Source of the DNA: a phage
Sequence record: PZ445550.1
Reading direction: 5' to 3' (one strand)
DNA length: 64,000 nt
Part shown: piece by piece, positions 14,444 to 63,455 of the stretch
How positions within the stretch are numbered: the first letter of the stretch is position 1
Layout: each line of letters begins with the position of its first letter
Made by a program: the position numbers and the translations under genes
Notes under the pieces: generated by a model
What the model was told of the DNA's origin: nothing
What the model saw: the letters and a program-made list of their open reading frames with translations, nothing else
The model's database searches: none

Positions 14444-14470
14444 AATCATATCTAAGAGGAGAAATTAACT

Positions 14471-15085
14471 ATGAGATTACCAGACCCATACACGAATCCA
14501 GAACTTTCAGGCTTAGGATTCGAAAGTGTTAACCTGATTGATAATGACCCCGTAATTCGTGATGAGTTACCAAATGGTAAAGTTAACGAAGTTAAGGTAT
14601 CCGCTCAATACTGGGGTATAAATATTTCTTATCCAGAATTATTTCCAGATGAATATAGTGTTCTAGATGCTTTTATTCTAGAATACAAAAGGACTGGTAG
14701 TTATATAGATGTTATACTACCACAATATGAGGCCTTTAGAGTTAGAGGTAATACTAGTCTAGTAAATATACCTGCTGGGCAGAAGGGTTCTAATATAACT
14801 ATGGATACTAAAGGGATCCTCACAGGTACTCCAAAACCTGGAGACCTATTTAAGCTGTCCAACCACCCAAAAGTGTATAAAATAACATCATTTAACAAAT
14901 CAGGTAACACATGGTCTATAAATTTATACCCTGATTTATTTGTAACTACTACTGGAGCTGAGAAGCCAGTATTTAATGGAATACTCTTTAGAACAAAACT
15001 CATGAATGGTGATGCTTTCGGATCTACATTAAATAATAACGGGACATATTCCGGCATCTCATTAAACTTACGGGAAAGTCTATGA
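14471..15085 (+). CDS. Distal tail protein (pb9-like)
   Basis: 204 aa, same length as T5 pb9; directly follows tape measure. Confidence 0.75.
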   Translation: MRLPDPYTNPELSGLGFESVNLIDNDPVIRDELPNGKVNEVKVSAQYWGINISYPELFPDEYSVLDAFILEYKRTGSYIDVILPQYEAFRVRGNTSLVNIPAGQKGSNITMDTKGILTGTPKPGDLFKLSNHPKVYKITSFNKSGNTWSINLYPDLFVTTTGAEKPVFNGILFRTKLMNGDAFGSTLNNNGTYSGISLNLRESL

Positions 15086-29677: not shown

Positions 29678-30137
29678 TTAATAGACTATCATATACTGCA
29701 TTTGCTACAGTCTCTGCTTCATGTATGGAATCTGTGTACCCATAATGCTTACCTTTAATTTGAACAAAATATCTACCAGTTGAATGTTTTAAGAAAACAC
29801 CTTTTGGTAATTCTTTATTACTATTCTTGTTTCTATTCAACTGATTGCGTGACTTAGAAGAGTCTAGTAAATTATCTATGGCATTATTTAATGGATTCCT
29901 ATCCTTGTGGTCAATTTCTTCTGGAATATATCCATACACATATAAGAAAGCTAGCTGATGTGCTTTGTACCTTTTACCATCAATTCGGATTTCCAATCTG
30001 ATATAGTTATCAGATACCCATACTTCCGTCCCTGCTATGGAGCCTTTTGATACTCTTCCCCTTGAGACTTTCCATCTAAATATACCAGTTGGAGGGTCAT
30101 AGTCCAATAACTCTTTAAGTCTATCTTGTGTAATCAT
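29661..30137 (-). CDS. HNH homing endonuclease (NUMOD4-like N-terminus plus HNH_3)
   Basis: LDYDPPTGIFRWK and IDHKDRNPLNNAIDNL motifs; inserted between D11-like and sbcD; preceded by a terminator. Confidence 0.75.
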   Translation of the reverse strand: MITQDRLKELLDYDPPTGIFRWKVSRGRVSKGSIAGTEVWVSDNYIRLEIRIDGKRYKAHQLAFLYVYGYIPEEIDHKDRNPLNNAIDNLLDSSKSRNQLNRNKNSNKELPKGVFLKHSTGRYFVQIKGKHYGYTDSIHEAETVANAVYDSLLSENTI

Positions 30138-30948: not shown

Positions 30949-31225
30949 ATTTTATTTCCTCTTTAAAGATTAATTTCGATTTATTAATTGCGATTAGTGG
31001 GTTAGTGTCGATTACTAAACGTGGTATCCATACTGGAACATACTGTATGTCCAAACTAGGATCGTTTGTAAACTTGTATTCGGCATAATTTCGTAGACTT
31101 AAAATCCCTAGATATTCTGCCAGTTGTCTATTAGACAATTTATTTGGATTATCAACAATCGTTGATTTATTCAAAATGAATGAGGGGCCGACTAATAATT
31201 GGTGAGCATCAGGCTCTGTAAGCAT
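30941..31225 (-). CDS. Hypothetical protein
   Basis: 94-aa ORF; no obvious Shine-Dalgarno sequence. Confidence 0.3.
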   Translation of the reverse strand: MLTEPDAHQLLVGPSFILNKSTIVDNPNKLSNRQLAEYLGILSLRNYAEYKFTNDPSLDIQYVPVWIPRLVIDTNPLIAINKSKLIFKEEIKYG

Positions 31226-31332
31226 TCTTTTAAAGAGCTTAATAATTAAGTCGGAATTTCCCCTAGCTAGTAAGTATAGCCTTTCATAATCGAAGAATTT
31301 AATTTTTGTTTTCTCCTCGAATTTATGTATAT

Positions 31333-31362
31333 ATTATACTAGATTTCGAGAGAATTTAGCAA
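31333..31362 (-). promoter_or_regulatory. Early promoter (proximal copy of a tandem pair)
   Basis: Minus strand reads TTGCTA, 18-bp spacer, TATAAT, followed by a P_N25-like leader. Confidence 0.5.
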
Positions 31363-31433
31363 CTAAAATTTTTATTTTTCTGCTTCGGACTTTCTTATCA
31401 ATCCGAAACTTTCTCTCTCAAATTTATGTATAT

Positions 31434-31462
31434 ATTATACATCATTTATGGGCTGTTGCCAA
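31434..31462 (-). promoter_or_regulatory. Early promoter (distal copy of a tandem pair)
   Basis: Minus strand reads TTGGCA, 17-bp spacer, TATAAT; the -35 lies in the 3' end of the helicase gene. Confidence 0.5.
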
Positions 31463-39124: not shown

Positions 39125-39899
39125 TATTATTTTTCTCCAATAGTTCTTTAATCGACAGGATTTCTATCCCATTCGTTTCGGCTTTCTTATAAGATGAGGA
39201 GGAACGCTTCGATTCATCCTCACAGATTAGGTATTTGACGTCTTTGGTAACAGATTTCTTAACCGTATACCCTAGACTTTCTAAATAGTTTGTTGCATCC
39301 GTTCTGTTTGCAAAATCTTGCAAAGATCCGGTAATACATACTGTGATTCCATTTGGTTGGGCTACTAGACCATCAGTAATAATGGTCTCAGCTTTAGTGC
39401 CTCTAATACCAGTTGAGAATTTCCACGGTAATTCGATTACATCCTTGCCTTGTGGGGAATTTAGCCAGGCTTTGTAGTTTTCTCCAGCTTTGCCATCAGC
39501 TCTCACATCTTGAAAGCTAGTGCAATTTTGGGATAATTTCTTTGCTGCAACCTCTCCAATTAGAGGAATTCCTAAAGAACCGAGAACTGAACCAAAGTCA
39601 ATGTCTCCGCGAACTTTAGTATTTAATTCGCTAATTAACTTAGCGGCAACCTTGCTACCCACTGCTCTAACCAAATCTTCTTCGGTTAGGTAAAATAGTT
39701 CTGAAATCTTCGTCAGCTCCAGCTTCTCAATAGTTTTTGGGCCAAAGCCCTTTAACTTCATTTTTGTACAGAAGTTCTCAATTAACTTACTTGATTGCGC
39801 TGGACAGTTGGACTTATTCCTACAGAATAATTGTCCATTGACAAGATCTAGTTTAGAACCACAAGAGGGACATTGTGTTGGAATTTCGATTTTCATCAA
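39117..39899 (-). CDS. ligB: NAD-dependent DNA ligase, C-terminal subunit (Zn finger, HhH, BRCT)
   Basis: CPSCGSKL...CRNKSNCPAQ zinc finger, helix-hairpin-helix region, BRCT-like ITVCITGSL...YLICED. Confidence 0.85.
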   Translation of the reverse strand: MMKIEIPTQCPSCGSKLDLVNGQLFCRNKSNCPAQSSKLIENFCTKMKLKGFGPKTIEKLELTKISELFYLTEEDLVRAVGSKVAAKLISELNTKVRGDIDFGSVLGSLGIPLIGEVAAKKLSQNCTSFQDVRADGKAGENYKAWLNSPQGKDVIELPWKFSTGIRGTKAETIITDGLVAQPNGITVCITGSLQDFANRTDATNYLESLGYTVKKSVTKDVKYLICEDESKRSSSSYKKAETNGIEILSIKELLEKNNNV

Positions 39900-39926
39900 A
39901 TTTCTTCCTTATCAATTTATATAAAT

Positions 39927-39955
39927 ATTATAGCAAGTATTTAAGCATTTAGCAA
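39927..39955 (-). promoter_or_regulatory. Early promoter in the ligA-ligB spacer
   Basis: Minus strand reads TTGCTA, 17-bp spacer, TATAAT. Confidence 0.55.
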
Positions 39956-41070: not shown

Positions 41071-41343
41071 TTATTTCACCTCGTAATACATAGGTTGTCT
41101 AGTGGACCCGTGCCATGTATAATTCTTGCACAGATGTAGGTATGTAGTTTTTACTAGCCTATCTGATAGAGGAGAGTATATCTCGGCTATTAGAGTACCT
41201 TTTTCATAGAAGATAGAAACAAACCTATATCCACACCTGGTTTTGGTATATTTCTCTCCGTTAACCTTTTCCTCCCACATAAGAATAAGAGGTTGCCCTA
41301 TGTATGGAAAAGGTTTAAGTGTGCTTATTTTTATCTTTTTCAC
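41071..41343 (-). CDS. Hypothetical early protein
   Basis: 90-aa ORF with GTG start behind GAGAGGG; own promoter upstream. Confidence 0.4.
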   Translation of the reverse strand: MKKIKISTLKPFPYIGQPLILMWEEKVNGEKYTKTRCGYRFVSIFYEKGTLIAEIYSPLSDRLVKTTYLHLCKNYTWHGSTRQPMYYEVK

Positions 41344-41373
41344 TTTACAACCCTCTCATTAATTTATATAAAT

Positions 41374-41402
41374 ATTATATAATAAAATTGGGATGAAAGC
41401 AA
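41374..41402 (-). promoter_or_regulatory. Early promoter
   Basis: Minus strand reads TTGCTT, 17-bp spacer, TATAAT. Confidence 0.55.
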
Positions 41403-42533: not shown

Positions 42534-42590
42534 ATTTTATATTTCCTTAATTAAGAATTAAACAGAATAGTTCTTTCAAACTATGAGAAT

Positions 42591-42619
42591 ATTATATCAA
42601 GAATTATAGGATTAAGCAA
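42591..42619 (-). promoter_or_regulatory. Early promoter
   Basis: Minus strand reads TTGCTT, 17-bp spacer, TATAAT. Confidence 0.55.
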
Positions 42620-42636: not shown

Positions 42637-42888
42637 TTACTCCACTAGGCCTACAGCGAGCATATCATCAATGCTGGCAATCTCCCAATCATCAGCAATA
42701 GCTTCACATACTGTTATATTAACAACCTCACTGTACGGATAATTACCCGCTACCCAAATATGTTGAGTAGCTACATCTAAATCAGCATCTAAAGTTAGCA
42801 GCACTAAGCCATAGTTATCATTATTCCAGCTTTTTCTGTATAGTGTTTTTGTTTCACCATCCTTTAACAGCTCTGTTAATTTACTCAC
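42637..42888 (-). CDS. Hypothetical early protein
   Basis: ORF with probable GTG start at 42888 overlapping the upstream stop codon. Confidence 0.35.
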   Translation of the reverse strand: MSKLTELLKDGETKTLYRKSWNNDNYGLVLLTLDADLDVATQHIWVAGNYPYSEVVNITVCEAIADDWEIASIDDMLAVGLVE

Positions 42889-43585
42889 GGCGTTTTCCTT
42901 TCTCTTTATCAAGTTTCAGAGCAGCTTTGACAGCTTCATTAATCAACGTGATTACTTCTTCTCGAGTCCATTTATATCCTAAGGATTTTACATCAACCCC
43001 TAGCTTTTCCAGATGCTTTACAGAAGCTAATTCATAATTCATATAATGAACGTTCTGCTGTTTACCTTCCGATAGTAGCCAAACTCGATAACAACCAACA
43101 GGATTATCCATTGCTTTTTTGATTTCACCGATACATTGATAGCCAGGAACCCAAACTAGTTCTCCGACTTCAAATTCTTCAGCTACTGCATCATCAGGGA
43201 TGATTGGCGGATTTAATGGGTCTACAATATCGTTAAGACGAAGCAGAGCACCATAGCGTTCCAAAACTGATTTAACCATTGCTACCGAACGATAATTACG
43301 ATCTGCAATCTCTTCAAAAGAATCACCAGATAGATACTGTTCAATAACGTTGGCTAACTCGATGCCTTCAATGAGTGTACCACGTTTCTTTTTCTTCATC
43401 TCGGCAACTTGAATCTGACGGTCTTGCCATTCTTCAATCATCCTTTCCATAGTCGGATTAGAAGAAACACCGAGCATTTCACACGCTGCTTTCTTAGTAC
43501 CACCGTTCTCCAGATGCTCTATAACCTTTTTAAAGACTTCATCCGGGATTTCATGGATATGTTTCTTTCTGCGAGAACCAGCCAT
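42881..43585 (-). CDS. Putative HTH DNA-binding early protein
   Basis: 234 aa; predicted helix-turn-helix (GGTKKAACEMLGVSSNPTMERMI); first gene behind a P_N25-like promoter. Confidence 0.45.
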   Translation of the reverse strand: MAGSRRKKHIHEIPDEVFKKVIEHLENGGTKKAACEMLGVSSNPTMERMIEEWQDRQIQVAEMKKKKRGTLIEGIELANVIEQYLSGDSFEEIADRNYRSVAMVKSVLERYGALLRLNDIVDPLNPPIIPDDAVAEEFEVGELVWVPGYQCIGEIKKAMDNPVGCYRVWLLSEGKQQNVHYMNYELASVKHLEKLGVDVKSLGYKWTREEVITLINEAVKAALKLDKEKGKRRE

Positions 43586-43626
43586 ATTTAAACTCCTCTC
43601 TCAAATTTATGAATCTATTATACAGA

Positions 43627-43655
43627 AATTTTTTGCATTATGCAAATAAATTTTT
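43627..43655 (-). promoter_or_regulatory. Strong early promoter, T5 P_N25-like
   Basis: Minus strand: TTGCAT, 17-bp spacer, TATAAT, then AGATTCATAAATTTGAGAGAGGAG leader, which matches the T5 P_N25 promoter as recalled. Confidence 0.65.
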
Positions 43656-43896
43656 ACGATTCCTTGAGCAAAGAAGCAAGTTCAGCATAGACTTTATCTA
43701 ACTCAAAGCCGATGCGAAGAGACACGTTAGTTTTCCGTTGTTTAAGTAACCACTCGGATATGTTAGGGATACCAGCTAATCTATGTGGTACCACCCTACA
43801 TAGCTTTTCCGAAGTATCGTAAACAGGAACTTTACGCTCTTTTACTGGAAACTTCCTTGTTTCCCATTTTTTATTCTTCGCTGTCATTCCTAGCAC
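43654..43896 (-). CDS. Hypothetical early protein
   Basis: 80-aa ORF overlapping the 3' end of the large helicase gene. Confidence 0.35.
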   Translation of the reverse strand: MLGMTAKNKKWETRKFPVKERKVPVYDTSEKLCRVVPHRLAGIPNISEWLLKQRKTNVSLRIGFELDKVYAELASLLKES

Positions 43897-46738
43897 CTAA
43901 CTCTGCCATTGCTTCATCATGCATATGTTTCTCCTCATCGGTCATAAACTTATAAGGAATTGGCATACACTCGATTTTACAATAGGTTCTGTACCAGTCT
44001 ATAATATTCTCCGTGTTCATATCCTTACCAATACCCATCATACCAAGATACATTCTCGCATATTTTGGGTTAGCACTCTGACCTGTTTTAAGAAAGAAAT
44101 CTTTTTTCTTACCTTTCAGAGCTTCTATGAAGGGTTTGATAGTGACATTTGAACACTTCTTAATATCTTCCCAAAACATCTCGTGCATTTTATGAAAGAA
44201 TGCAGCTCGATCATTTGGTTTATCTTTGATATACTGCTCAACATGCTCTACTGTTACGTCTTTAATAGACTCAAGATGGTAGTAGCGAACAAGGAGTAGT
44301 TTAGCTTCATATGCATCCGCATGGCGTGGAGCACAGTAATCAGGGGTTGAGTGCAGGATAGCTTTAATTCGCTCTTCTGTATATTCTTTACCCGCACCTT
44401 CAATAGTTCCCCAGCTTTCACTGAAAATATCAATAGTTGCTCCCTGATCTAGCAGATAATAACGTAAAGTACTGGTATAATTCCTAGATTCAAGCTCCCT
44501 ACGACGTGCGTATAATTGTTGGGCTAATTCTAACCAACCTTCATCAATATTATACTGTTCAGAACCTGCTGAGAATCCACTAGTGGATTTATCTATAAAA
44601 TAATAGATATTCTGAGCACCACGGTCGCGCCTAATTGCTTGAAAACGCATGTTTGGTGCTTGGTTACTAGTTCTAGTAATAACGAATACGTTATCAAAAT
44701 AATTAAAGTCAACCCCACTCGTTACTGATGGACTACATAATAAACAATCAATCTGTTGATCAATTAGCTCATTAGTTGTGTAATCCAGAATACGTCTAAT
44801 ATCCACATCAGACGTAGAGTTTGAGTGGATTTCCTTAACTAACGCACCAGTATTACGACGCAGTGCCATACCTTTTTCGTTAAGTTCATCAGGCCCACAA
44901 TCAGATACTAGAATTGATTTCTCACCCATCTCTAAAGATGTTTGAAGTGCAACCCAAATACTGGATTCATCGGGAAACTCATACGCATGAGCCTTTGATA
45001 GCATTTTACGGTGATGGTTATAAAATGCTACTGGTTTATCAAAATCAATAAGAGAACCATAAGCTTCAATCGTCTCAGCACTAATATCGCCATCCGATAA
45101 TATTACAGTTTTAGCTGTCATGAGAATATCACGAAGAACCTGAATACACTCACGGCGTTGTTTAACAACTGGAGCGAACAGCAGATCATTCATTACAGCG
45201 TCGCATTCATCAATAAAAATGGTGTCTATTTGACCAATGAAACTCTTAAATTTGTGCAAAGAATGGATAGTTGTAGACATACGATCAATAGCGCCGCGCT
45301 TAAAATTAAGCATATCAACTGATTTATCATACTGTCCCGCACTAAACTTTTTGGCATTTGAGGATACAAGTGCTCTAGTATTTGTAACTGCCAAAAAATT
45401 TCCTGGAAGAACGCCAGCATCAAGCCATTTAGTTACTGCCGTAGTTTTACCCGTACCAAGACTTGCCTTAACAAATGTTATATGATTTTTTGGAGGCACA
45501 ATGTTAATCTTCAGATATGGGACTTCTGGGGGAGAATCAGTATCTAGACGTTTTAATGGTACACCTTTTAGATTTGGTGGAATCTCACGTTTGGAATTGT
45601 TCACAAACGCTTTAAGAGCTTGCTTACGACCATTATTAAAATAATCTTGAATATTACGACTGTTATCTTTTGTTGCAATATATTCGGATAAAGCAGGTTT
45701 AATCTCACGTTCTAACCATGCAAAATCAACACCATCCTCTAGTGCTCTGTGATAAAGCTTTGGTATAATACGTAGATACACCCCATCCTCAGCTTCTTCT
45801 AATTCGCTGATGGTTTCTTCTACTTTATCAGATGCGATCTTTTTACCTTTAATTTGGTCAAGTAAAGAATAGAACTCTTCCTTAAACTCCCCTCTAGTTG
45901 TTTCATAGTCAACTAGATTATTAGGCAGATTTATTTTCGAACCTTTAACATACACTAGACGTGGTTTATTCTCCGCTTTAAACGGATCAACTATACCATC
46001 ATTAAATAAAGGATCAGCAAAATAGTGAAGCTGTACAGAAGAGTAATAAGCTAAGTCGGCAATATCAAAGCCATACTTTTGTTTACTACTGTCATTGATA
46101 GATGTAAATAAGAACTTTAATTGCCCTTGTGTTACCTTAACATTAGATTCTAGTATTAAGTGCATTCGGATACCTGGTTTTAGTCCAGCCGAAGACGATG
46201 CATGAGCAATAAACCCTGCATCAAGAGGAAACATATCCTCACTAATACTATTCAACATCTTAATAATATGCCGCGCCATACCAACAAGATTAAACTTGTC
46301 ATAGCCACCAGTATCTATAATACCATCCACATCCATAGCGACTATATGGCTAGGGTTGGAAACATTAAAGTTACCTCGGATACGACGAACATTATCTTTT
46401 GGAGCTAAACATTTACCACGAATAGCTACAATATGCGGATCCCTTGTGAGACGACGCATAATAGGCAACATTTCAGCAAGATTCTGTGGGTCAAGTTCTT
46501 CAAGTACATCAAATTTGAAGGGCATGGAAGCTGGTTTACCTTCTGGATGCTCTTTAGAGAATCTCTTTGCAAAGGTATAATCTTCCGCTTTGATCTCTTT
46601 CCAGATACCTGTGGCTTTATCTCTGGAAAATCCTGCATGACCTTGTAGGATTGAGAACACAACAGTACTCCTATGTTGGTTATTCGGATATTTTTCTCTA
46701 GGACTATTCAGAAAGAATAGAACAACTATTACTACCAT
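43871..46738 (-). CDS. Large SF2-type ATPase/helicase, putative replication origin-binding protein
   Basis: Walker A SLGTGKTT, Walker B IFIDECD, helicase C motifs; N-terminal start uncertain. Confidence 0.6.
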   Translation of the reverse strand: MVVIVVLFFLNSPREKYPNNQHRSTVVFSILQGHAGFSRDKATGIWKEIKAEDYTFAKRFSKEHPEGKPASMPFKFDVLEELDPQNLAEMLPIMRRLTRDPHIVAIRGKCLAPKDNVRRIRGNFNVSNPSHIVAMDVDGIIDTGGYDKFNLVGMARHIIKMLNSISEDMFPLDAGFIAHASSSAGLKPGIRMHLILESNVKVTQGQLKFLFTSINDSSKQKYGFDIADLAYYSSVQLHYFADPLFNDGIVDPFKAENKPRLVYVKGSKINLPNNLVDYETTRGEFKEEFYSLLDQIKGKKIASDKVEETISELEEAEDGVYLRIIPKLYHRALEDGVDFAWLEREIKPALSEYIATKDNSRNIQDYFNNGRKQALKAFVNNSKREIPPNLKGVPLKRLDTDSPPEVPYLKINIVPPKNHITFVKASLGTGKTTAVTKWLDAGVLPGNFLAVTNTRALVSSNAKKFSAGQYDKSVDMLNFKRGAIDRMSTTIHSLHKFKSFIGQIDTIFIDECDAVMNDLLFAPVVKQRRECIQVLRDILMTAKTVILSDGDISAETIEAYGSLIDFDKPVAFYNHHRKMLSKAHAYEFPDESSIWVALQTSLEMGEKSILVSDCGPDELNEKGMALRRNTGALVKEIHSNSTSDVDIRRILDYTTNELIDQQIDCLLCSPSVTSGVDFNYFDNVFVITRTSNQAPNMRFQAIRRDRGAQNIYYFIDKSTSGFSAGSEQYNIDEGWLELAQQLYARRRELESRNYTSTLRYYLLDQGATIDIFSESWGTIEGAGKEYTEERIKAILHSTPDYCAPRHADAYEAKLLLVRYYHLESIKDVTVEHVEQYIKDKPNDRAAFFHKMHEMFWEDIKKCSNVTIKPFIEALKGKKKDFFLKTGQSANPKYARMYLGMMGIGKDMNTENIIDWYRTYCKIECMPIPYKFMTDEEKHMHDEAMAELGARNDSEE

Positions 46739-47158
46739 CTATACAAAACATTAATTATCATCAAGCAGTATGAATAAGTTATCATACCTCAGTGCTACAC
46801 TCTCTTAACTCTTATCCAGACCAGAACCTAGGTCATTGGCCGCTAAGCCGATTCTGATTGCCCTCACTATCCTATTGGTAGGTGGCTACTGGACGTGTCA
46901 CCATTCGCTGCTCTTTTCGTTCGCACCCCCATATAAAGCTCTGCCTATATAACGAGCTAAATATGCACGGTTTGGATTTACCTTTCCGAATTCAGGGTAT
47001 GCAGATCACTTAATTGATAATTAACTAATGTAGTATAAACACTAGTAATAGTTAAAACAACCCTTAATGGGGCAGCCTAACTGTTCCGTATCGCGGATTG
47101 TAAACAAGAAAAATTAGCAAAATCAATTTTTACTAATGTCTCTCACTTCAATATAAAT

Positions 47159-47187
47159 ATTATATCAAGATTTTGAGCATCGTGCAA
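47159..47187 (-). promoter_or_regulatory. Early promoter with about 400-nt leader
   Basis: Minus strand reads TTGCAC, 17-bp spacer, TATAAT. Confidence 0.5.
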
Positions 47188-47227
47188 CAAAAATTTTAAA
47201 GATGGTGCTATCAGTGTCTTTGAGCAC

Positions 47228-47256
47228 AGTGAAAACCGAGTCATTTTGACTCGGTA
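47228..47256 (-). terminator. Rho-independent terminator ending the Sir2 operon
   Basis: Minus-strand hairpin ACCGAGTCA-AAA-TGACTCGGT followed by TTTTCAC. Confidence 0.6.
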
Positions 47257-47278
47257 ATCAGTATTGGGCTAAGGAAAA

Positions 47279-47677
47279 TCAATTATCATTCAGACCTGGG
47301 ATGTAAATCCCAATGCGATTTAATTGATCTTTAGCTTCTTCAAGAATATCTTCGGTGTATTCCCAAATATCATCTTCTACTTGCAAAAGATAATGGGATT
47401 CTCCAGTTTCTGGGTCACGCGTAATAGCTAAACCACGTGGATGGAATACAGAGAAATTAAGGGCAACAATCAACCCCATACCTGATAATTCATTCCAGTC
47501 GGCTTCCCACCCATCCATCTCATCTTCATCTACAAAGATTCCAGTACTGGAATCTGTTATATCCATAAAGGGAAATACTACACTAACTTTCTCAGCTCCA
47601 AGCCAGCGTGCGAGCAATCCTTCAGCACGCTCCACTAAACTAGGATCGATCTGACGCCAATATACTTGTTCCATCAT
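47279..47677 (-). CDS. Hypothetical protein, paralog A
   Basis: 132 aa; shares GMGL(I/V)(V/F)ALN and C-terminal G(I/Y)(Y/Q)IPGL motifs with the adjacent ORF. Confidence 0.5.
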   Translation of the reverse strand: MMEQVYWRQIDPSLVERAEGLLARWLGAEKVSVVFPFMDITDSSTGIFVDEDEMDGWEADWNELSGMGLIVALNFSVFHPRGLAITRDPETGESHYLLQVEDDIWEYTEDILEEAKDQLNRIGIYIPGLNDN

Positions 47678-47683
47678 GCCTCC

Positions 47684-48112
47684 TTAGGCAGTTAAACCCG
47701 GAATTTGATAACCAAAACGGCGAAGTTTTTGGATACCCTCATTTACTTCTTCTGGTGAATAAGACCAACCATACTGTTCATTAACCTGAAAACCAGGAGA
47801 TTCACTAGTCTTATAGTTAATTACAATTCGATGCTTAACAGGCATAAATAGTTTATAGTTTAATGCAAAGACTAACCCCATTTCATCTAACTCTTTCCAG
47901 CCAATAATCTCCTCCACACCATCCTCTAGTTGTACTACTAGTCCCATGCATGAAGTTTCTTCTATATCATCCTTAAATGCAAAAGAAATATCATTATTTT
48001 CACACCAAACCTTTAAGGAGTTAATAGCTTCATTATACAAGTTATTAGGAAGAGTTCGCCAAAAATTGACCAGTACCGGATTAGTTTCCTTAAAAAATAC
48101 ATTATTAAACAT
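47684..48112 (-). CDS. Hypothetical protein, paralog B
   Basis: 142 aa; tandem paralog of 47279-47677. Confidence 0.5.
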   Translation of the reverse strand: MFNNVFFKETNPVLVNFWRTLPNNLYNEAINSLKVWCENNDISFAFKDDIEETSCMGLVVQLEDGVEEIIGWKELDEMGLVFALNYKLFMPVKHRIVINYKTSESPGFQVNEQYGWSYSPEEVNEGIQKLRRFGYQIPGLTA

Positions 48113-48114
48113 AC

Positions 48115-48621
48115 TTATACCTTAAATTGTTGTAATGATTTACACATCTCAAGCTCTGGACTAAACTCCAGCATATAGCGAGCAGCCATTAGATCTTGAA
48201 GATTTATACCAGTCTTACCATTGACTATAACTGTAGGATACTGATACATCATAGCGCCAGCGTCATCCAATACACACCAGTGCTTAAGTTTGTGTTTTTC
48301 TACAAACCTAAGTACAGAATTACCCCTAGATAATCCACCACCAGTAAAATCCGTTGTACCTAAAAAACGATCGATAAGACCTAATCCGGTCATAATCCGA
48401 ACGTTCTCCATCTCATTTTTAACAGAAAACCATGAAGATACCCCAACAATCATTATTGAAGAGGGACGAATAAAATCCTGAAAAGCCTTGAGAAGCGGTT
48501 TAAAAACCCAATCACCCCCGAAGAAGATCTTTTCATCGTCAGGTGCATGGTGGTGAGAGATGCTAGAATTGAGCACCCCATCAATGTCTAGAAAAATAAT
48601 CGGAGTATTACTTATTTCCAT
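48115..48621 (-). CDS. HAD-like hydrolase/phosphatase (putative)
   Basis: N-terminal IIFLDIDGVLNS matches HAD motif I (DxDG[TV]). Confidence 0.5.
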   Translation of the reverse strand: MEISNTPIIFLDIDGVLNSSISHHHAPDDEKIFFGGDWVFKPLLKAFQDFIRPSSIMIVGVSSWFSVKNEMENVRIMTGLGLIDRFLGTTDFTGGGLSRGNSVLRFVEKHKLKHWCVLDDAGAMMYQYPTVIVNGKTGINLQDLMAARYMLEFSPELEMCKSLQQFKV

Positions 48622-48823
48622 TTTTGTTCCTTTCTAAGAACTTATCATACTCAACCGTATCAGTATATATGACACCATAGTCATCAGATTTATAATCCAT
48701 TTCCCATAGTTCACAGCGATAACACCAACTACCATCCGCCCATACAAATATATCATCAGGGTGTGTATACACAGATTTAACTATGGACATATTTGTTTTC
48801 CCCCCTCTCCGGAGGATAACCAT
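48608..48823 (-). CDS. Hypothetical small protein (WCYR motif)
   Basis: Shares DIF...G.WCYR motif with 48781-48966. Confidence 0.35.
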   Translation of the reverse strand: MVILRRGGKTNMSIVKSVYTHPDDIFVWADGSWCYRCELWEMDYKSDDYGVIYTDTVEYDKFLERNKNGNK

Positions 48824-48966
48824 ATATCCTCCGTAGTATAGATAATTTTATATGTATTGCCCAATCTTTCTTTTACACTAGCAAATCTATAGGCAAACCT
48901 ATAACACCAAATACCAGATTCGGTTATAAAAATATCCCATTCATTATTTATTGCTTCCTGGCACAT
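48781..48966 (-). CDS. Hypothetical small protein (WCYR motif)
   Basis: 61-aa ORF, paralogous motif to 48608-48823. Confidence 0.35.
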   Translation of the reverse strand: MCQEAINNEWDIFITESGIWCYRFAYRFASVKERLGNTYKIIYTTEDIWLSSGEGGKQICP

Positions 48967-49762
48967 AAGGTCTATCCTCTAAATGAGCTTCCACACGAGC
49001 AATAAAATCAGGGTCACTGAAAGCATCCACCGCACCTTTACTCCAGTAAGGGACACCACGTTCTTCCAACTGGTACATCTCACTACGAGTCATACCTTGA
49101 TAGCCTGGCTCTGCCGCTAGGGCACTATCATAGTAGTTAACTACCATTAATTTGGCAGCAGTCAAATTAAGAACAGGAAATAATTCCCAATAGAAGTTAA
49201 TTACTTGGTTAGAGCAACCAACCACAATGATCATATCTTGATTGGTAATACCATCAAAAACATTGTACATTTCTGCATATGCTGGAGCATGCTCCCCAAA
49301 GAAGATTACATTAGGTTTAACCCATTTATAATCATCTGGGTCAATAGAATTGTACCCTACATTAATAATCCGTTTATTGCTACTATTGTAGCTATCAGCT
49401 ACAACAACCTCTTTTAAATATCCATGAATGTGCAGAATGTCACTATGTGGAACGCCAGCACGCTCAATAAGGTCATCAACGTTGGTAGTAAGGTTTACTA
49501 CTTGATTTGGATACCGTTTATACCACTCACCAATACGAAGGTGGGCAAGATTAGGTTCAACAGTTTCTAGTTCTTCACGGCGTTTATTATAGAACTCATG
49601 AGTTTTGTGGTAGCAATCTCCTAAAAAGGTATGAATATTGCATACTTCTTCAATATTAAACTCGTCCCACATCGCTTTACCAGTACTGGAGTCAGTACGA
49701 AATGCGCGTACGCCGCTTTCAACACTTAAACCTGCACCACTAATAATAATTAGCCTACGCAT
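48944..49762 (-). CDS. Sir2-family protein (NAD-dependent deacylase / ADP-ribosyltransferase-like)
   Basis: GAGLSVESGVRAFR (Sir2 GAGIS...SGIP.FR), TTNVDDL (TQNID-like), HIHG catalytic His; no CxxC zinc ribbon. Confidence 0.6.
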   Translation of the reverse strand: MRRLIIISGAGLSVESGVRAFRTDSSTGKAMWDEFNIEEVCNIHTFLGDCYHKTHEFYNKRREELETVEPNLAHLRIGEWYKRYPNQVVNLTTNVDDLIERAGVPHSDILHIHGYLKEVVVADSYNSSNKRIINVGYNSIDPDDYKWVKPNVIFFGEHAPAYAEMYNVFDGITNQDMIIVVGCSNQVINFYWELFPVLNLTAAKLMVVNYYDSALAAEPGYQGMTRSEMYQLEERGVPYWSKGAVDAFSDPDFIARVEAHLEDRPYVPGSNK

Positions 49763-49956
49763 TATACTACCCCCCGCTTAAATCCCTCGATAATATCTCG
49801 GAGTAAAATTGCTTCTTCAGGACGTACCCTTTCTTGTTTAATAAGCATGTCTAATCCAGCAATACAAGCAGATACTCCAGCATTATATCCAGAGTTCCAT
49901 TGCTCTATAAGCATATTTTCTAGATTACTTTTTAGATTCTGATTCAAGAAGTCCAT
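49762..49956 (-). CDS. Hypothetical small protein
   Basis: 64-aa ORF translationally coupled to neighbours. Confidence 0.35.
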   Translation of the reverse strand: MDFLNQNLKSNLENMLIEQWNSGYNAGVSACIAGLDMLIKQERVRPEEAILLRDIIEGFKRGVV

Positions 49957-50149
49957 ACAGCTTATCCTCTAATTCCATAATACGATTTTCATAAGAAGCA
50001 CGCAACTTTTCAATTGCTAACGCGCGAATAGTAACTTCATTAGCATTAATAGCTAGCTGGGCCAGGTCTTCCGTTTCCATACGTCCATTGTAAATTAAGC
50101 GATATTTAAGATGTTTTACATTTTTAGCCATTATTAAACTCCACTGCAA
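49925..50149 (-). CDS. Hypothetical small protein
   Basis: 74-aa ORF. Confidence 0.35.
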   Translation of the reverse strand: MQWSLIMAKNVKHLKYRLIYNGRMETEDLAQLAINANEVTIRALAIEKLRASYENRIMELEDKLYGLLESESKK

Positions 50150-50504
50150 CTGTTTCTAGATCTTCGTCAAACAAATTAGAATATATATCTTTAAGATATT
50201 GTTTAATATCTTTAGTAATATCTTCGTATCCCTCGGGACTACGTTGGTATACTTTTAGTACTCTATTATAGACAAATTCAAGAGTATATTCTACCTCATC
50301 TTCATCCTCGTCAAACAAGCAATTTGAGCTATATGGTGATACATCTAGATTTGTTTCTACCCAATCACCAATAATGGTGGAGTATGCAACACCCTCTATT
50401 TGAGAGTAATCCCCTGTAGCCGCAAAAATAGCTTCCTGAATGTTTTCAACGCCAAGATGAAAACCGCCACATGTAGACTCAATTATATATGGTTTTAATT
50501 TCAT
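50124..50504 (-). CDS. Hypothetical acidic protein
   Basis: 126 aa, strongly acidic (FDEDEDEVEY, SNLFDEDLE). Confidence 0.4.
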   Translation of the reverse strand: MKLKPYIIESTCGGFHLGVENIQEAIFAATGDYSQIEGVAYSTIIGDWVETNLDVSPYSSNCLFDEDEDEVEYTLEFVYNRVLKVYQRSPEGYEDITKDIKQYLKDIYSNLFDEDLETVAVEFNNG

Positions 50505-50740
50505 TCCTTAACCCTATAGATTGTTTCTGTAGAAATACTACCAGCTTTCTCGATATAGTTAATTATTACACAGCCAAACTTCTTACGAGTATAACGAATT
50601 CTAAAATGTTTAGCCTTACCTTTCATGACCGAACGTAGTACTCTACGTTCATCAAAGTATCCGAGCCAGTCGAGAGCCTTACGTTCTTCACTAGGCTCTC
50701 CAAGATGAGAAACATCTACCTTCGGAAGTAATTCGCTCAT
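50501..50740 (-). CDS. Hypothetical small protein (first gene of operon)
   Basis: 79-aa ORF just downstream of a P_N25-like promoter and leader. Confidence 0.4.
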   Translation of the reverse strand: MSELLPKVDVSHLGEPSEERKALDWLGYFDERRVLRSVMKGKAKHFRIRYTRKKFGCVIINYIEKAGSISTETIYRVKE

Positions 50741-50768
50741 ATCTTTCTCCTCTCAAATTTATAGATCT

Positions 50769-50797
50769 ATTATACATAAATTTTTGGCTGAAAGCAA
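50769..50797 (-). promoter_or_regulatory. Strong early promoter, T5 P_N25-like, driving the Sir2 operon
   Basis: Minus strand: TTTATTTGCTTTCAG...TATAATAGATCTATAAATTTGAGAGGAG; TTGCTT, 17-bp spacer, TATAAT. Confidence 0.65.
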
Positions 50798-50833
50798 ATA
50801 AAATAAAAGCCGGGTTGCTAGTCGACCCGGCTG
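50797..50833 (-). terminator. Rho-independent terminator after nrdD
   Basis: Minus-strand hairpin AGCCGGGT-loop-ACCCGGCT followed by TTTTATTTTATTT. Confidence 0.6.
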
Positions 50834-50839
50834 ATTAAC

Positions 50840-52714
50840 TTATTTAGCTCGAATATCCTGATGTTTCACCCTACCCATAACCTCATGCTGTTTACCTGGG
50901 TTAAATGGACGAGCACCTGGATTTCCAAGGTATCCACAAACTCGGCGAGTTACTTCAAGAGTTTCAGGATCATGATTGCCACAAATCGGACACTTAAATC
51001 CATCTTCAGAAGCTATTGTCTCGCCTAAGAATCCACATTTACCGCAAGAATCCACAGGGGTATTAATACCAAAATAGTGAACTTTACTTGCAGCATAATT
51101 AATAACCCATTCTAAGGCATCAGGAAATCGTTTCATGTCTGGTAATTCCACGTAGGAAATACACCCACCAGATGCAATTGGAGTAAAATTAGACTCATAG
51201 TCAAACTTCACATTAGGAGCAACTTTACGCTCTACATCAAGATGATGAGAGTTAGTATAATATCCTTTGGCTAAAATATCTTCATGCTCCGGGAAATATT
51301 GACGATCTAGACGACAGAAACGGTCACACAAAGATTCAGATGGTGTAGCATACAGACTATAACCTAACTGGGTTTCTTCTTTCCTCTGATCAACCCTATC
51401 CCGCATATACTGCAATACACGTTGGACAAACTTGATACATGTTTCAGACATCGTATCAACATCTTTACCAAACATGAACTGTAACATTTCATGACAGCCA
51501 ATATACCCTAGAGATACAGAAGCACGATTGTAGAAATGATCGAATACATATTCATCAGGCTCTAAACGTAATCCGAAGGCTCCTGACATATAGAGAATAG
51601 GCGCGGCTTTGGCTTGAATGTATTTTAAGCGATCAACTCTCCACTCCAATGCTTTTAATGCAGTATCCACACGCAGCTCAAGTAGATCAAAGAATAGGTC
51701 GATATTTCCTTCAGCTTCGATAGCAATTCTAGGTAAGTTTACAGAAACAACACCTAAGTTATTACGACCGGCAGTTTCACCATCTTCTGTAGCAGCTAGG
51801 AATGAGCGACATCCCATAGAAACTTTGTAGTCTCCAGTAACCTCTACAACTTTATCATAGCTAATATAATCAGGGTACATACGTTCAGCAGTACACTTCA
51901 TAGCTAACTTCTTGATGTCATAATTAACATCTCCAGGTTTCATATTAACACCGTCTCTAAGTACAAATACTAGCTTAGGAAATATTGCAGTACGTTTATT
52001 AATACCCAAGCCATCCATACGTACTTTCAGTATTGCTTTCTGTACTAAACGTGCTTCCCAAGAAGTTCCCAGACCAAAACCAAAAGTAATAAATGGACTC
52101 TGACCATTAGAGTTAAACATCGTATTGATTTCATACTCTAGACCCTGACAAGCATCATAGACTTCTTTTTCAGTCATTTCAGTAGCCATTACAGATGCTT
52201 TGGCTTCATCCTTAGTCCAACGCTTTGCAAACGCATGGTTTTTGTCATAGGATTTACGTACATAAGGAGCAAGAACTTCATCAAGACGATCTACAGAAGT
52301 ACCACCGTACTGATAGGAACTAACCTGAGTAATAATCTGGGCTGTAATAGCTGCTGCAGTAGTAATAGAGTTTGGTGTACTAATTTCAGCATTACCAACT
52401 TTCATACCATTCTTTAGCATATCTTCCAGAGCTACTAGACAACAGTTAGTCATACCTAAAGCAGCGTAATCAGCATCATGAAAGTGAATATCACCAATCA
52501 TATGAGCATTTCGAATCTGAATTGGCATTTCTTCTAAAATCAGATATTTACTCAATTCCCCTGCAAGCATATCCCTTTGTGTAGGGAAACGCTCAGAGGG
52601 TTTATTCGCATTATTAAAGAGAAGCTCTTCGTCAGCAGAACCCTCAATAATTTCTTTGCAGTTTCTAATCAAGGACTGCATTTCCTTGTATTTTAGTTCA
52701 TCATTGCGATTCAT
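50840..52714 (-). CDS. nrdD: Anaerobic ribonucleoside-triphosphate reductase (class III)
   Basis: Glycyl-radical motif TRRVCGYLG near the C-terminus; Cys cluster CGKCG...CPICG. Confidence 0.9.
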   Translation of the reverse strand: MNRNDELKYKEMQSLIRNCKEIIEGSADEELLFNNANKPSERFPTQRDMLAGELSKYLILEEMPIQIRNAHMIGDIHFHDADYAALGMTNCCLVALEDMLKNGMKVGNAEISTPNSITTAAAITAQIITQVSSYQYGGTSVDRLDEVLAPYVRKSYDKNHAFAKRWTKDEAKASVMATEMTEKEVYDACQGLEYEINTMFNSNGQSPFITFGFGLGTSWEARLVQKAILKVRMDGLGINKRTAIFPKLVFVLRDGVNMKPGDVNYDIKKLAMKCTAERMYPDYISYDKVVEVTGDYKVSMGCRSFLAATEDGETAGRNNLGVVSVNLPRIAIEAEGNIDLFFDLLELRVDTALKALEWRVDRLKYIQAKAAPILYMSGAFGLRLEPDEYVFDHFYNRASVSLGYIGCHEMLQFMFGKDVDTMSETCIKFVQRVLQYMRDRVDQRKEETQLGYSLYATPSESLCDRFCRLDRQYFPEHEDILAKGYYTNSHHLDVERKVAPNVKFDYESNFTPIASGGCISYVELPDMKRFPDALEWVINYAASKVHYFGINTPVDSCGKCGFLGETIASEDGFKCPICGNHDPETLEVTRRVCGYLGNPGARPFNPGKQHEVMGRVKHQDIRAK

Positions 52715-59160: not shown

Positions 59161-59185
59161 ATAGCCCTTCGGGGCTATTATATTT
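59161..59185 (+). terminator. Hairpin terminator after thyA
   Basis: ATAGCCC-TTCG-GGGCTAT followed by an AT-rich tract. Confidence 0.45.
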
Positions 59186-59194
59186 AAATTTTAT

Positions 59195-59223
59195 TTGCTT
59201 ATTTAATAAAATTTAAATATAAT
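59195..59223 (+). promoter_or_regulatory. Early promoter
   Basis: TTGCTT, 17-bp spacer, TATAAT, then GGAGG and ATG 59249. Confidence 0.55.
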
Positions 59224-59248
59224 ATATCTTATAAATTGGAGGTATATA

Positions 59249-59530
59249 ATGATTTCAGCCAAAGAAGCCCAAGAACTTGCAGGATTAACAGAAGTACCTG
59301 CATTTCTAAAATTTATAGAAGAAAAGATTGTAGCAGCCGCGAAATCTGGAAATACAGAAGTAATTATCCGTGATAATCCTTATGCTATGTGGTTATATAA
59401 TCCTCGGGAGATGTCAGGAGCAGCTAAATCGGTAATAAAAACTCTAGCCGATAAGGGTTATAACCTATCTCAATATTACCGAGAAGCTGCCTTTGTAGAT
59501 ATGGGTCTTAAAATTAATTGGGAGGTATAA
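59249..59530 (+). CDS. Hypothetical protein
   Basis: 93-aa ORF with good ribosome-binding site. Confidence 0.45.
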   Translation: MISAKEAQELAGLTEVPAFLKFIEEKIVAAAKSGNTEVIIRDNPYAMWLYNPREMSGAAKSVIKTLADKGYNLSQYYREAAFVDMGLKINWEV

Positions 59531-59799
59531 TGTCTATTCTTTTATCTGCAAATGAAGCAAGAAATGCTACTATTGATACTTTAACTCAAGAACTGGCTAT
59601 GCTAGAAGCAAAAGTAGCTGTAGAAATTGATAAGTGTATTAAGAGAAGAGATTTTAAATGTACAATATCTAACATTGGTAGTTTTTCAGAAGCAGCTCGT
59701 ACTAATCTAATTGATAAACTACGAAAACTAGGATATTCAGCCGAAGTTGACTATAATCAGCGCGAAGGTTATTGGGTAACTATTGATTGGAGCAAATAA
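59518..59799 (+). CDS. Hypothetical protein
   Basis: 93-aa ORF; stop overlaps the RNase H start (TAATG). Confidence 0.4.
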   Translation: MGGIMSILLSANEARNATIDTLTQELAMLEAKVAVEIDKCIKRRDFKCTISNIGSFSEAARTNLIDKLRKLGYSAEVDYNQREGYWVTIDWSK

Positions 59800-61232: not shown

Positions 61233-61252
61233 ATAGGGGCGAAAGCCCCTAC
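61233..61252 (+). other. GNRA-tetraloop hairpin (GGGGC-GAAA-GCCCC)
   Basis: Perfect 6-bp GC stem with GAAA loop, no T-run; same element recurs at 61513-61530. Confidence 0.5.
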
Positions 61253-61288: not shown

Positions 61289-61504
61289 ATGTTCTCTAAG
61301 AAACCACGTTCCGTTACTGAAATCGTTGCTTCCTTTACTACTATCACTGATGAACTTCAGGCCCGTATTGAGGCTGATCAGAAAATCGCCGCTGATATTC
61401 AGAAACAGCAGGAAGAACTTGCTCTGAAGTTGGCCGAAACTAATAAGAGTGAAAAATCTGCTCAAACCATTAAGGAAAATATCCTTAAACTGTTGGGCAA
61501 GTAA
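61289..61504 (+). CDS. Hypothetical small coiled-coil protein
   Basis: 71-aa ORF. Confidence 0.4.
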   Translation: MFSKKPRSVTEIVASFTTITDELQARIEADQKIAADIQKQQEELALKLAETNKSEKSAQTIKENILKLLGK

Positions 61505-61512
61505 TTTAAATT

Positions 61513-61537
61513 AGGGGGCGAAAGCCCCTCTTATTTG
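61513..61537 (+). terminator. Hairpin terminator (GGGGC-GAAA-GCCCC plus T-rich tail)
   Basis: GC stem with GAAA loop followed by TCTTATTT. Confidence 0.45.
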
Positions 61538-62513: not shown

Positions 62514-62542
62514 TTGCTATTAGCCCCAAAATTCTGTATAAT
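62514..62542 (+). promoter_or_regulatory. Early promoter
   Basis: TTGCTA, 17-bp spacer, TATAAT, followed by P_N25-like leader ATATTCATAAATTTGAGA. Confidence 0.55.
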
Positions 62543-62581
62543 ATATTCATAAATTTGAGAAAACAACAAAAGGAAAACAAT

Positions 62582-62764
62582 ATGCCAGTATCTAAAAATG
62601 TTCGTAAAAATGGTAAGAAAGCTACTCGTAATCTGGGTATTCGTCGTATGGTTGAACGTCAATCAGGTGTCCAGAAAATCTTTGATCTGCTAAATCGTGC
62701 TAATCCTAAAATTGATAACAGTAAAGATACTGTTCTGCGTACCTTACTGGCAATTGGTCTGTAA
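62582..62764 (+). CDS. Hypothetical small basic protein
   Basis: ATG 62582 behind AAAAGGAAAACAAT, the same leader as at 60700. Confidence 0.4.
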   Translation: MPVSKNVRKNGKKATRNLGIRRMVERQSGVQKIFDLLNRANPKIDNSKDTVLRTLLAIGL

Positions 62765-62816: not shown

Positions 62817-63455
62817 ATGACTACTCGTATTTCTAAAACTCGTGCTCTGGCAACCATCAAATCCCTGGAAGCTAAAATCCGCAAAGCTACCGAACAGCAT
62901 CTACTGATTGCTGTTGGTGAGGGTAAGGATAAAAATAAGGTTGTAGTTGGCGCTGCAATCGAAGTAGATGCTCTGTCTACTCGTATTAAGACAGATTTCC
63001 AGTCTCTGCTGGATATGATGTCCCAGCGTGATCGTATCAAAGCTGCCCTGATTAAGAGCAACGCGGAAACAATCGTTGAGATTGGTTCTCGTAAAATGAC
63101 TGTTGCGGAAGCAATTGAAGCTAAACGTTCTATGGAGCTTAAAGCTCAGTTGCTGGCTAATATGCGTAAGCAGTTCCATGCTGCTACTGTTAAATTTAAC
63201 ACGCAAAAAGCACAGTTTGATGCTAAATACGAGCGTTTGCAGGATAGCATGGCTACCCGTGATAAGAAAACTTCCGAAGATGAAGTTAAAATGCAGCTCA
63301 ACCTGTTGGAACTTAAGAATACCCCATTCTTGATTGACCCGCTGGAGCTGGAAAAGCTGATCAAGCAGCATGACGAGGAATACCAGGACTTTGCAACAAA
63401 TGTTGATTTTGTTCTGTCTGAGTCTAATGCTTCTACTTTTATCGAAGTAGAGTAA
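62817..63455 (+). CDS. Hypothetical protein
   Basis: 212-aa ORF, E. coli-optimal codons, AGGAAG ribosome-binding site. Confidence 0.5.
   Translation: MTTRISKTRALATIKSLEAKIRKATEQHLLIAVGEGKDKNKVVVGAAIEVDALSTRIKTDFQSLLDMMSQRDRIKAALIKSNAETIVEIGSRKMTVAEAIEAKRSMELKAQLLANMRKQFHAATVKFNTQKAQFDAKYERLQDSMATRDKKTSEDEVKMQLNLLELKNTPFLIDPLELEKLIKQHDEEYQDFATNVDFVLSESNASTFIEVE

Follow-up and report, generated by a model that had tools for sequence, protein, structure and literature searches.

The DNA considered here, a stretch of 64,000 nucleotides from a phage (sequence record PZ445550.1; hereafter the window), contains a family of short cassettes, each made of a promoter and of the first bases transcribed from it, which resemble the promoter P_N25 of phage T5. 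P_N25 is among the best-studied promoters of E. coli; the "T5 promoter" of expression vectors derives from it, and it serves as a standard model in studies of abortive initiation and promoter escape. In a megablast search of phage genomes, positions 43000-51500 of the window matched Escherichia phage KookSpook (PP925842.1, minus orientation) with 100% identity over the full length, the window corresponding approximately to 44012-108011 of that record, reverse-complemented; over the same interval the identity to three T5 records is ~87%. KookSpook is a T5-like coliphage (Tequintavirus), whose annotation is limited to coding sequences. The region flagged in a first-pass annotation, 43590-50800, belongs to the central early block of Tequintavirus (DNA metabolism and replication), the genes of which are transcribed from the minus strand at ~24.8 to 52.7 kb and, beginning at ~53 kb, from the plus strand.

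The promoter upstream of D2 and its paralog at 50.77 kb

At 43586..43656 (minus strand) lies the counterpart of the T5 element T5P33, also called "repeat c copy 6", recognised by its sequence and by synteny with T5P33/ORF102. Its -35 hexamer TTGCAT (43640-43645) and its -10 hexamer TATAAT (43617-43622) are separated by a spacer of 17 bp; the discriminator AGATTC, with a G at -5, follows at 43611-43616, and transcription is predicted to start at an A (43610), the initial transcribed sequence being ATAAATTTGAGAGAGGAGTT (43591-43610), which includes the Shine-Dalgarno GGAG at 43593-43596. Upstream of the -35, an A/T-rich UP-like tract (43646-43656) holds the stop codon of an upstream open reading frame (ORF) of 80 amino acids, while the first gene downstream, on the same strand, is D2 (42881..43585; 234 amino acids), with its ATG at +26. 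"D2 protein" is the product name used in the T5 and SE11 records; the protein matches PHROG 3611 (E=8e-129) and, weakly, HTH_28.

The published P_N25 69-mer (primer IM103, CATAAAAAATTTATTTGCTTTCAGGAAAATTTTTCTGTATAATAGATTCATAAATTTGAGAGAGGAGTT; PMC4447248) has an exact and single occurrence in T5 AY587007, at 63119-63187, an interval annotated as "putative early promoter T5P33" and "repeat c copy 6" and placed directly upstream of ORF102, that is, D2. Of 65 positions of the site at 43.6 kb, 58 agree with it, the 7 mismatches being confined to the -35 hexamer and the spacer, and a run of 102 consecutive bases, from -18 to +84, is the same as in T5, the average of the region being ~87%. Gene order is as in T5 on both sides, the site lying after obp and a small ORF and directly upstream of D2/ORF102. 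The architecture of the P_N25 core is also found; the position upstream of D2, the 17-bp spacer, the TATAAT, the 6-bp discriminator AGATTC, the start sequence ATAAATTTGAGAGAGGAGTT and the A/T-rich, UP-like upstream tract are all shared, whereas the -35 hexamer (TTGCAT, one base off the TTGCTT of T5) and 6 positions of the spacer differ. Because of the match to P_N25, the 102-base identity and the shared gene order, the relationship is one of specific orthology and not a generic resemblance to sigma-70 promoters: the site is the positional ortholog of T5 P_N25 and would drive D2.

In order to avoid circularity, orthologs of the P_N25 region were gathered via the D2 protein and not via the motif, yielding 28 distinct Tequintavirus sequences. 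From -12 to +20 these contain no substitution, the only change being in the length of the GA repeat; over the same sequences, 166 of the 234 third codon positions of D2 vary, as do 59 of the 468 first or second positions. The block from -12 to +20 is under strong purifying selection. The -35 hexamer and spacer exist in at least two alleles, the T5 form TTGCTTTCAGGAAAATTTTT and the form of the window, TTGCAT(A/C)(A/G/C)TGCAAAAAATTT; the window allele carries an inverted repeat, TTTGCA-TAA-TGCAAA, over the -35 (43634-43648, minus), and this palindromic version recurs in about one third of the distinct orthologs sampled from Tequintavirus. The start sequence persists even where D2 identity falls to 68-73%, as ATAAATTCGAGAGAGGA or ATAAATTGAATAAGGAA after the -10, and at 41% D2 identity no promoter is present there. 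Some phages have a different gene upstream of the ortholog, homology beginning at the A/T tract.

The arms of the inverted repeat over the P_N25 -35 are kept in other phages with loops TAG or TCC, and a sequence of similar appearance, TTGCA-TTT-GGCAA, covers the -35 of the promoter at 31439 (described below). An operator at TTGCA-N3-TGCAA over the -35 was considered and rejected, the 4 matches in the whole window being no enrichment over the 3.24 expected. Some orthologous promoters, otherwise invariant, differ in the length of a simple repeat (L128, L132, L182 and L190, from public viral contigs), GAGAGAG becoming GAGAGAGAG in the start sequence, and in one ortholog the discriminator TATAATATATAC is changed into TATAATATATATATAC, which would shift the start site.

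The second site, at 50741..50832 (minus strand), corresponds by sequence and by the T5 annotation to T5P31 ("repeat a copy 2" plus "repeat c copy 5"). It comprises the -35 TTGCTT (50792-50797), the -10 TATAAT (50769-50774), the discriminator AGATCT, a predicted +1 A at 50762 and the leader ATAAATTTGAGAGGAGAAAGAT, with an ATG at 50740 (+23); upstream, the T-run of the nrdD terminator hairpin (50808-50832, minus), which continues into TTTTATTTGCTTTCAG, doubles as the A/T tract of the promoter. Identity to T5P31 extends to 74 of 86 positions from -75 to +11, and the 43.6 and 50.77 kb sites are identical to each other at 48 of 68 positions from -55 to +13, mostly in TTTATTTGC and between -14 and +13. 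By this comparison T5P31 is the T5 ortholog of the 50.77 kb site, which within the phage is paralogous to P_N25 and is predicted to drive the Sir2-containing operon after nrdD. Across 22 Tequintavirus loci, collected through NrdD, the terminator, the promoter and the start sequence to +11 are constant, and a similar terminator-plus-promoter layout is seen in most relatives whose NrdD is 72-77% identical. Between the leader and the ORF094 ortholog (50124-50504) lies an ORF of 79 amino acids (50501..50740, minus; PHROG 7953, with no assigned function), absent from T5, slur09 and Kenya-K18. The nrdD hairpin itself is inverted with respect to T5 and most relatives, its loop CGACTAGCA being the reverse complement of the TGCTAGTCG of T5; the flip covers roughly 25 bp, and the stems are kept.

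The promoter strings from which the first-pass annotation had drawn the resemblance to P_N25 are both present on the minus strand, TATAATAGATTCATAAATTTGAGAGAGGAG at 43622-43593 (ATG at 43585) and TATAATAGATCTATAAATTTGAGAGGAG at 50774-50747 (ATG at 50740), with TTTATTTGCTTTCAG upstream of the second (50802-50788, minus). The overall interval was correctly drawn; the narrower ranges assigned to the two copies, 43627-43655 and 50769-50797, cover instead the -35 to -10 part and are ~20-30 nt off the strings quoted. As for the match to P_N25 proposed there, the alignment to the published promoter bears it out at 43.6 kb, and its outcome is orthology with T5P33 rather than generic sigma-70 similarity.

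The family of early-region promoters

About 20 promoters of the early region form one family, sharing the -10 TATAAT, an A/T-rich discriminator and the start sequence ATAAATTTGAGAG. The 25-mer TATAATAGATYYATAAATTTGAGAG, searched with up to 3 mismatches, has four matches (at 31439, 43622 and 50774 on the minus strand and at 62537 on the plus strand, these positions being the first base of the -10 hexamer) versus 0 in 100 shuffles; all four copies are within 2 mismatches, and +1 to +13 are common to them. In an independent repeat search over 24-64 kb of the window, the five largest repeat families turned out to be these promoter cassettes. TATAAT with a TTG-type -35 at 16-18 bp occurs at 17 intergenic early-region sites, all facing the next gene; when these are aligned on the -10, conservation appears in columns that were not used for their selection, namely A at -6 in 16 of the 17, T at -5 in 13 of the 17 and the run ATAAATT.GAGAG from +1 to +13. 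A matrix made from -6 to +13 alone reaches at least 10 bits at nine places in the 128 kb of both strands and, because all nine directly follow a -10 hexamer, the motif is part of the promoter and not a free-standing site. The family copies all lie between ORFs or overlap a gene end only, and their strand is that of the next gene. Most of the discriminators read ATAT-, ATTT- or ATTC-, those of the two sites described above being AGATTC and AGATCT.

In the T5 record AY587007, seven "repeat c" (consensus TGTATAATAKATTYATAAATTTGAGAGAG) and five "repeat b" (TATAATATTTATATAAATTGATGAG) elements are annotated, all over the -10 and start of early promoters. The block shared in this family is 25-29 nt long and takes in the -10, the discriminator and some 13 bases at the start of the transcript. 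Each window copy has its own T5 counterpart: 62537(+) is repeat c copy 4, 50774(-) is c copy 5 plus a copy 2, 43622(-) is c copy 6, 31439(-) is c copy 7, 41379(-) is b copy 4 and 39932(-) is b copy 5, while 31338(-), 42596(-) and 47164(-) are T5P38, T5P34 and T5P32, respectively.

The copy at 31439 (31408..31462, minus; "repeat c copy 7") follows directly on the stop codon of the D10 helicase gene and has no ORF of its own; its -35 is TTGGCA (31457-31462), its -10 lies at 31434-31439, and its predicted +1 at 31427 opens the start sequence ATAAATTTGAGAGAGAAAG. It stands in tandem, 101 bp upstream of the T5P38 ortholog (31303..31362, minus), which has the -35 TTGCTA at 31357-31362, an 18-bp spacer, the -10 at 31333-31338, a predicted +1 at 31326, the leader ATAAATTCGAGGAG and a probable ATT start codon at 31303. 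Both tandem promoters are conserved in 28 loci, collected through the downstream 94-amino-acid protein. The ORF of this protein probably starts 26 codons earlier (31225-31303, minus), at the ATT, which is found 9 nt after GAGGAG; the start codon at this position is ATT in 21 related loci and ATG in 6, the 26 extra codons are identical at 23 of 26 positions at the protein level, with 10 synonymous versus 3 non-synonymous changes, and the PHROG profile is 120 amino acids long, the annotated protein matching positions 27-120 only.

Upstream of the second DNA ligase gene is the T5P37 ortholog ("repeat b copy 5"; 39896..39955, minus), with the -35 TTGCTA at 39950-39955, the -10 at 39927-39932 and the start sequence ATAAATTGATAAGGAAG. 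The T5P35 ortholog ("repeat b copy 4"; 41344..41402, minus) has the -35 TTGCTT at 41397-41402, the -10 at 41374-41379 and the start sequence ATAAATTAATGAGAG, and between it and the ligase gene there is an extra ORF of 90 amino acids (41071-41343). The T5P34 ortholog (42534..42619, minus; -35 TTGCTT at 42614-42619, -10 at 42591-42596, start sequence ATAGTTTGAAAG, ATG at 42533) is the counterpart of a T5 promoter which, lying ~1 kb downstream from P_N25, is presumably P_N26. The T5P32 ortholog (47152..47187, minus) has the -35 TTGCAC at 47182-47187, the -10 at 47159-47164 and a predicted +1 at 47152, the terminator hairpin of the upstream operon lying at 47230-47260 (minus). On the plus strand, the ortholog of T5 "repeat c copy 4" (62514..62584) has the -35 TTGCTA at 62514-62519, the -10 at 62537-62542, a predicted +1 at 62549 and the start sequence ATAAATTTGAGAAAAC; the ATG of a 60-amino-acid ORF (PHROG 5252) is at 62582 (+34).

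The copies that the first-pass annotation had listed beside the two main ones are real, all mapping to promoters or to "repeat b" or "repeat c" elements of T5 AY587007, and their six coordinates were exact (31333, 31434, 41374, 42591 and 47159 are the low end of TATAAT, 62514 is the start of the -35). The family had been undercounted by about 12 members, with -10 hexamers at 35919, 39932, about 40025 and 52749 on the minus strand and at 52865, 53006, about 54160, 56603, 59218, 60319, about 60670 and 63862 on the plus strand; those near 54160 and 60670, with an imperfect -10, come from the repeat finder, and the one near 40025 from the consensus scan. The leader and ribosome-binding site had been supposed to be shared: this holds for the leader, of which +1 to +13 are common to the four close copies, and less so for the ribosome-binding site, a Shine-Dalgarno and ATG following at once only at 43.6 kb (+26) and 50.77 kb (+23), with the ATG at +34 for 62537(+) and no ORF for 31439(-).

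Some features adjoin members of the family. Between the T5P32-type promoter and obp (ATG at 46738) extends an untranslated leader of 414 nt (46739-47152, minus), with a G+C content above its surroundings, a folding z-score of -2.6 and 93% identity to T5, the aligned-block average being 86%; many relatives share only its first 115-137 nt, and KookSpook annotates two tiny hypothetical ORFs in it. A search of Rfam with a permissive E-value over 46650-47350 gave chance-level matches only, and neither Rfam at the gathering threshold nor a tRNA search gave a match in the whole window; the leader could hold a structured RNA or origin-related DNA. Around the -35 of the 59218 promoter there is a perfect 20-nt inverted repeat (59176-59224, plus), the right arm of which includes the -10; T5 and other relatives have different versions, their arms being complementary via paired changes, which suggests selection for a hairpin or palindrome, for example a thyA terminator or an RNA-processing site overlapping the promoter.

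A protein of 83 amino acids (42637-42888, minus), encoded between D2 and the T5P34-type promoter, has a weak, below-threshold match to a Thoeris anti-defence Tad2-like domain (E=3e-4; 21.6 bits versus a cut-off of 25), and two Sir2-like genes are present in the neighbouring operon. In the late region, a site at 1371-1424 (plus) scores with the early discriminator-plus-start matrix (TTTACA, 17 bp, TATACT, then ATATTCATACAGTTGAGGA), and a promoter at 14400-14473 (plus) reads TTGATA, 17 bp, TATAAT at 14438 and then AGAGGAGAAATTAACTATGAGA, which matches exactly the ribosome-binding-site core of ATTAAAGAGGAGAAATTAACTATG, a sequence that occurs in published papers. Presumably, ATTAAAGAGGAGAAATTAACTATG comes from pQE-type expression vectors, where it is the ribosome-binding site, and 14400-14473 is the P_G25 region of T5. 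The closest relative of the phage after KookSpook, at 97.8% identity and 92% coverage, bears the record name "Campylobacter phage C13", with Campylobacter jejuni as host; such a host is unexpected for a Tequintavirus and may reflect a labelling or contamination issue.

Proposed working of the cassettes

The cassettes are, almost certainly, sigma-70-dependent early promoters in which the first 20-35 transcribed bases are part of the conserved unit. Such a unit comprises, in its upstream part, an A/T-rich tract from about -40 to -55, sometimes coinciding with the T-run of the preceding terminator; a core with the -35 TTGC(T/A)T, a 17-bp spacer, a perfect TATAAT and a 6-bp A/T-rich discriminator; and, in its downstream part, ATAAATTTGAGAG, which in several copies runs directly into a Shine-Dalgarno and a start codon. 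The holoenzyme of the host RNA polymerase would first bind very tightly and, because of such tight binding, promoter escape would become rate-limiting; the A/G-rich initial transcribed sequence, which is the "downstream sequence region" (DSR) of Bujard, would then set the amount of productive RNA, and the same initial bases would finally serve as a short 5' untranslated leader.

For N25, a -35 TTGctt, a 17-bp spacer, the -10 TATAAT, an UP element and a 6-bp discriminator have been described, together with a G at -5 which gives a long-lived open complex, initiation being limited at escape; when +3 to +20 are replaced by an "antiDSR" sequence, full-length RNA goes down about ten-fold and abortive products go up (PMC12464699). 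All T5 gene classes are transcribed by the host sigma-70 polymerase, and an ATATT discriminator is shared by T5 early promoters (PMC7472727). The frozen stretch from -12 to +20 fits the N25 biochemistry, in that the part setting open-complex stability, start choice and escape is the part that cannot change.

Sigma-70 dependence, a start at the A of ATAAATTT, early timing and the role of escape are carried over from published T5 work, and several points weigh against the proposed working. Start sites and early timing in KookSpook are set by analogy; the strength of the P_N25 ortholog may differ from that of its T5 counterpart, because the -35 hexamer and spacer differ at 7 positions; the 31439(-) copy, with no ORF of its own, may act as a tandem promoter; a scan of 24-64 kb with a generic sigma-70 consensus, which is uninformative in an A/T-rich genome, gave 66 matches versus 63.6 expected and 50 versus 65.2; and the extreme conservation of +1 to +20 could reflect an RNA function or a protein-binding site besides escape.

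Somewhat unlikely, in our opinion, is that +1 to +20 are kept mainly for their role in the RNA, the A/U-rich 5' end and the GAGAGGAG Shine-Dalgarno acting as a translation-enhancing or stabilising leader. Such a role would agree with the position of the GAGAG run, which falls within the Shine-Dalgarno at 43.6 and 50.77 kb (ATG at +26 and +23) and has the same spacing to an ATT or ATG start in the 31338(-) copy, as well as with the N25 leader being more conserved than the first and second codon positions of D2; the same +1 to +13, however, are found in the 31439(-) copy, which has no ORF, and in the 62537(+) copy, the Shine-Dalgarno of which is about 20 nt further downstream. Moreover, it was in vitro, with purified polymerase and without translation, that the start sequence was shown to affect productive transcription (PMC12464699). 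A role in the RNA leader and a role in promoter escape are not exclusive.

It is less probable again that the discriminator and start sequence are a recognition feature for phage control of the early-to-late switch, exerted for example by gpT5.026, which alters the interaction of polymerase with the discriminator, or by a DNA-binding protein responsible for early shut-off. In T5 the main difference between early and late promoters is the discriminator, which is ATATT in the early ones (PMC7472727), and in most family members of the window TATAAT is followed by A-T-A/T-T; P_N25 and T5P31, however, read AGATTC and AGATCT. With gpT5.026, the contacts of polymerase at -5 to +2 become weaker and the early/late balance is shifted, but the protein has no strong effect in vitro (PMC7472727). 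A free-standing operator has left no sign, the motif never occurring away from a -10 hexamer, and the palindrome TTGCA-N3-TGCAA over the -35 of the P_N25 allele is, as stated above, not enriched (4 versus 3.24).

A possible role of the cassettes in gene gain and loss, and known systems

KookSpook and T5 differ by whole-gene insertions and deletions, several of which begin right after a promoter start sequence: the 79-amino-acid ORF at 50501-50740, the 90-amino-acid ORF at 41071-41343 and two ORFs of 93 amino acids at 59249-59799, a region of which T5 has a 3' remnant only. The presence of HNH genes varies by junction among relatives (29661-30137, 36802, 43884, 56610); KookSpook carries one at 29661-30137, others are found in T5, SE11, slur09 and Tennessee at sites that lack one in KookSpook, and the one in T5 after the 56603 promoter is an example. 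An ORF of 71 amino acids (61289-61504, plus) lies between two copies of GGGGCGAAAGCCCC, at 61233-61252 and 61514-61529, which is a hairpin and not a promoter; T5, Kenya-K18 and Tennessee have a single hairpin and no such ORF, and the sequences are consistent with gain or loss of the ORF by recombination between the hairpin copies.

Another reading, as improbable as that of a recognition feature for the early-to-late switch, is that the cassettes also offer short stretches of homology at which recombination shuffles small genes, in the manner of the promoter-early stem-loop (PeSL) cassettes of T4-type phages (PMC2839356, PMC4122927). After the constant leader downstream of nrdD (to +11 in the 22 loci) there are at least five different continuations, the 71-amino-acid ORF is flanked by two hairpin copies of which T5 has one, and in a comparison with five relatives (T5, slur09, Tennessee, SE11 and Kenya-K18) 19 distinct insertions, deletions or replacements were counted, of which 9 have an edge no more than about 60 nt from the start of a promoter, 6 of the 9 between -6 and +33. 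However, a whole-gene change can only occur at a gene junction, and a promoter is present at about 16 of the 56 junctions, so that 9 of 19 is only weakly above expectation (binomial P=0.064, with events shared by relatives being non-independent); no enrichment is seen with T5 alone, where promoter junctions account for 4 of 9 events. A promoter copy adjoins the extra ORFs at 50501-50740, 41071-41343 and 59249-59799 on a single side, no inserted ORF was seen behind a different cassette in another phage, and several of the events are HNH homing-endonuclease genes, moved by their own mechanism. When 135 cassette instances from public viral contigs were clustered according to their upstream context and the protein encoded downstream, no ORF appeared with two different cassettes; the pairings are fixed at most sites, and only the site downstream of nrdD is variable. 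That the terminator-promoter-leader cassettes are preferred short-homology substrates for the gain, loss or swap of accessory genes, and hence a Demerecviridae counterpart of PeSL, is slightly more doubtful still; if true, the invariant block from -12 to +11 would be one recombination border.

A chance occurrence of the generic sigma-70 consensus in an A/T-rich genome, to which the consensus scan, with matches no more frequent than in shuffled sequence, would lend itself, deserves practically no credence and is refuted by the 25-mer (4 matches versus 0 expected), by the 102-nt run identical to T5 at a syntenic position and by the invariance of -12 to +20 across 28 orthologs.

The early-promoter reading of the cassettes, thus preferred, has little weight as a discovery, the feature being already known from T5, whose repeat family is annotated in AY587007; what it adds is a promoter and leader annotation absent from the KookSpook record. 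It also provides an evolutionary counterpart to the biochemical work on the DSR, -12 to +20 being frozen across 28 natural variants. Since this stretch is frozen while the -35 and spacer have alternative alleles and synonymous sites are largely variable, the comparison argues that the block made of -10, discriminator and start sequence is the part under strongest natural selection.

With the PeSL of T4-type phages the cassettes have in common that strong early promoters of sigma-70 type are repeated, joined to terminator hairpins and border small variable ORFs; a terminator hairpin abuts the promoter at 50.8 and 47.2 kb, some copies are without a hairpin, and in T5 itself "repeat a" is paired with "repeat c". 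In contrast to PeSL, the window cassettes show no significant excess of breakpoints (P=0.064); the inserted ORFs are not flanked by duplicated promoters, the phage family is different and the sequences are unrelated. With T5 AY587007 the agreement is closer, the window copies corresponding one to one to its repeats a, b and c and to its promoters T5P22-T5P38; KookSpook differs in having, at three places, extra small ORFs between the leader and the next gene of T5. Lambda PR and T7 A1 resemble the cassettes in their near-consensus core, their UP-like tract and a start sequence which modulates productive initiation (PMC12464699); no sequence relationship links them to the T5 family, which is set apart by its common discriminator and ATAAATTTGAGAG.

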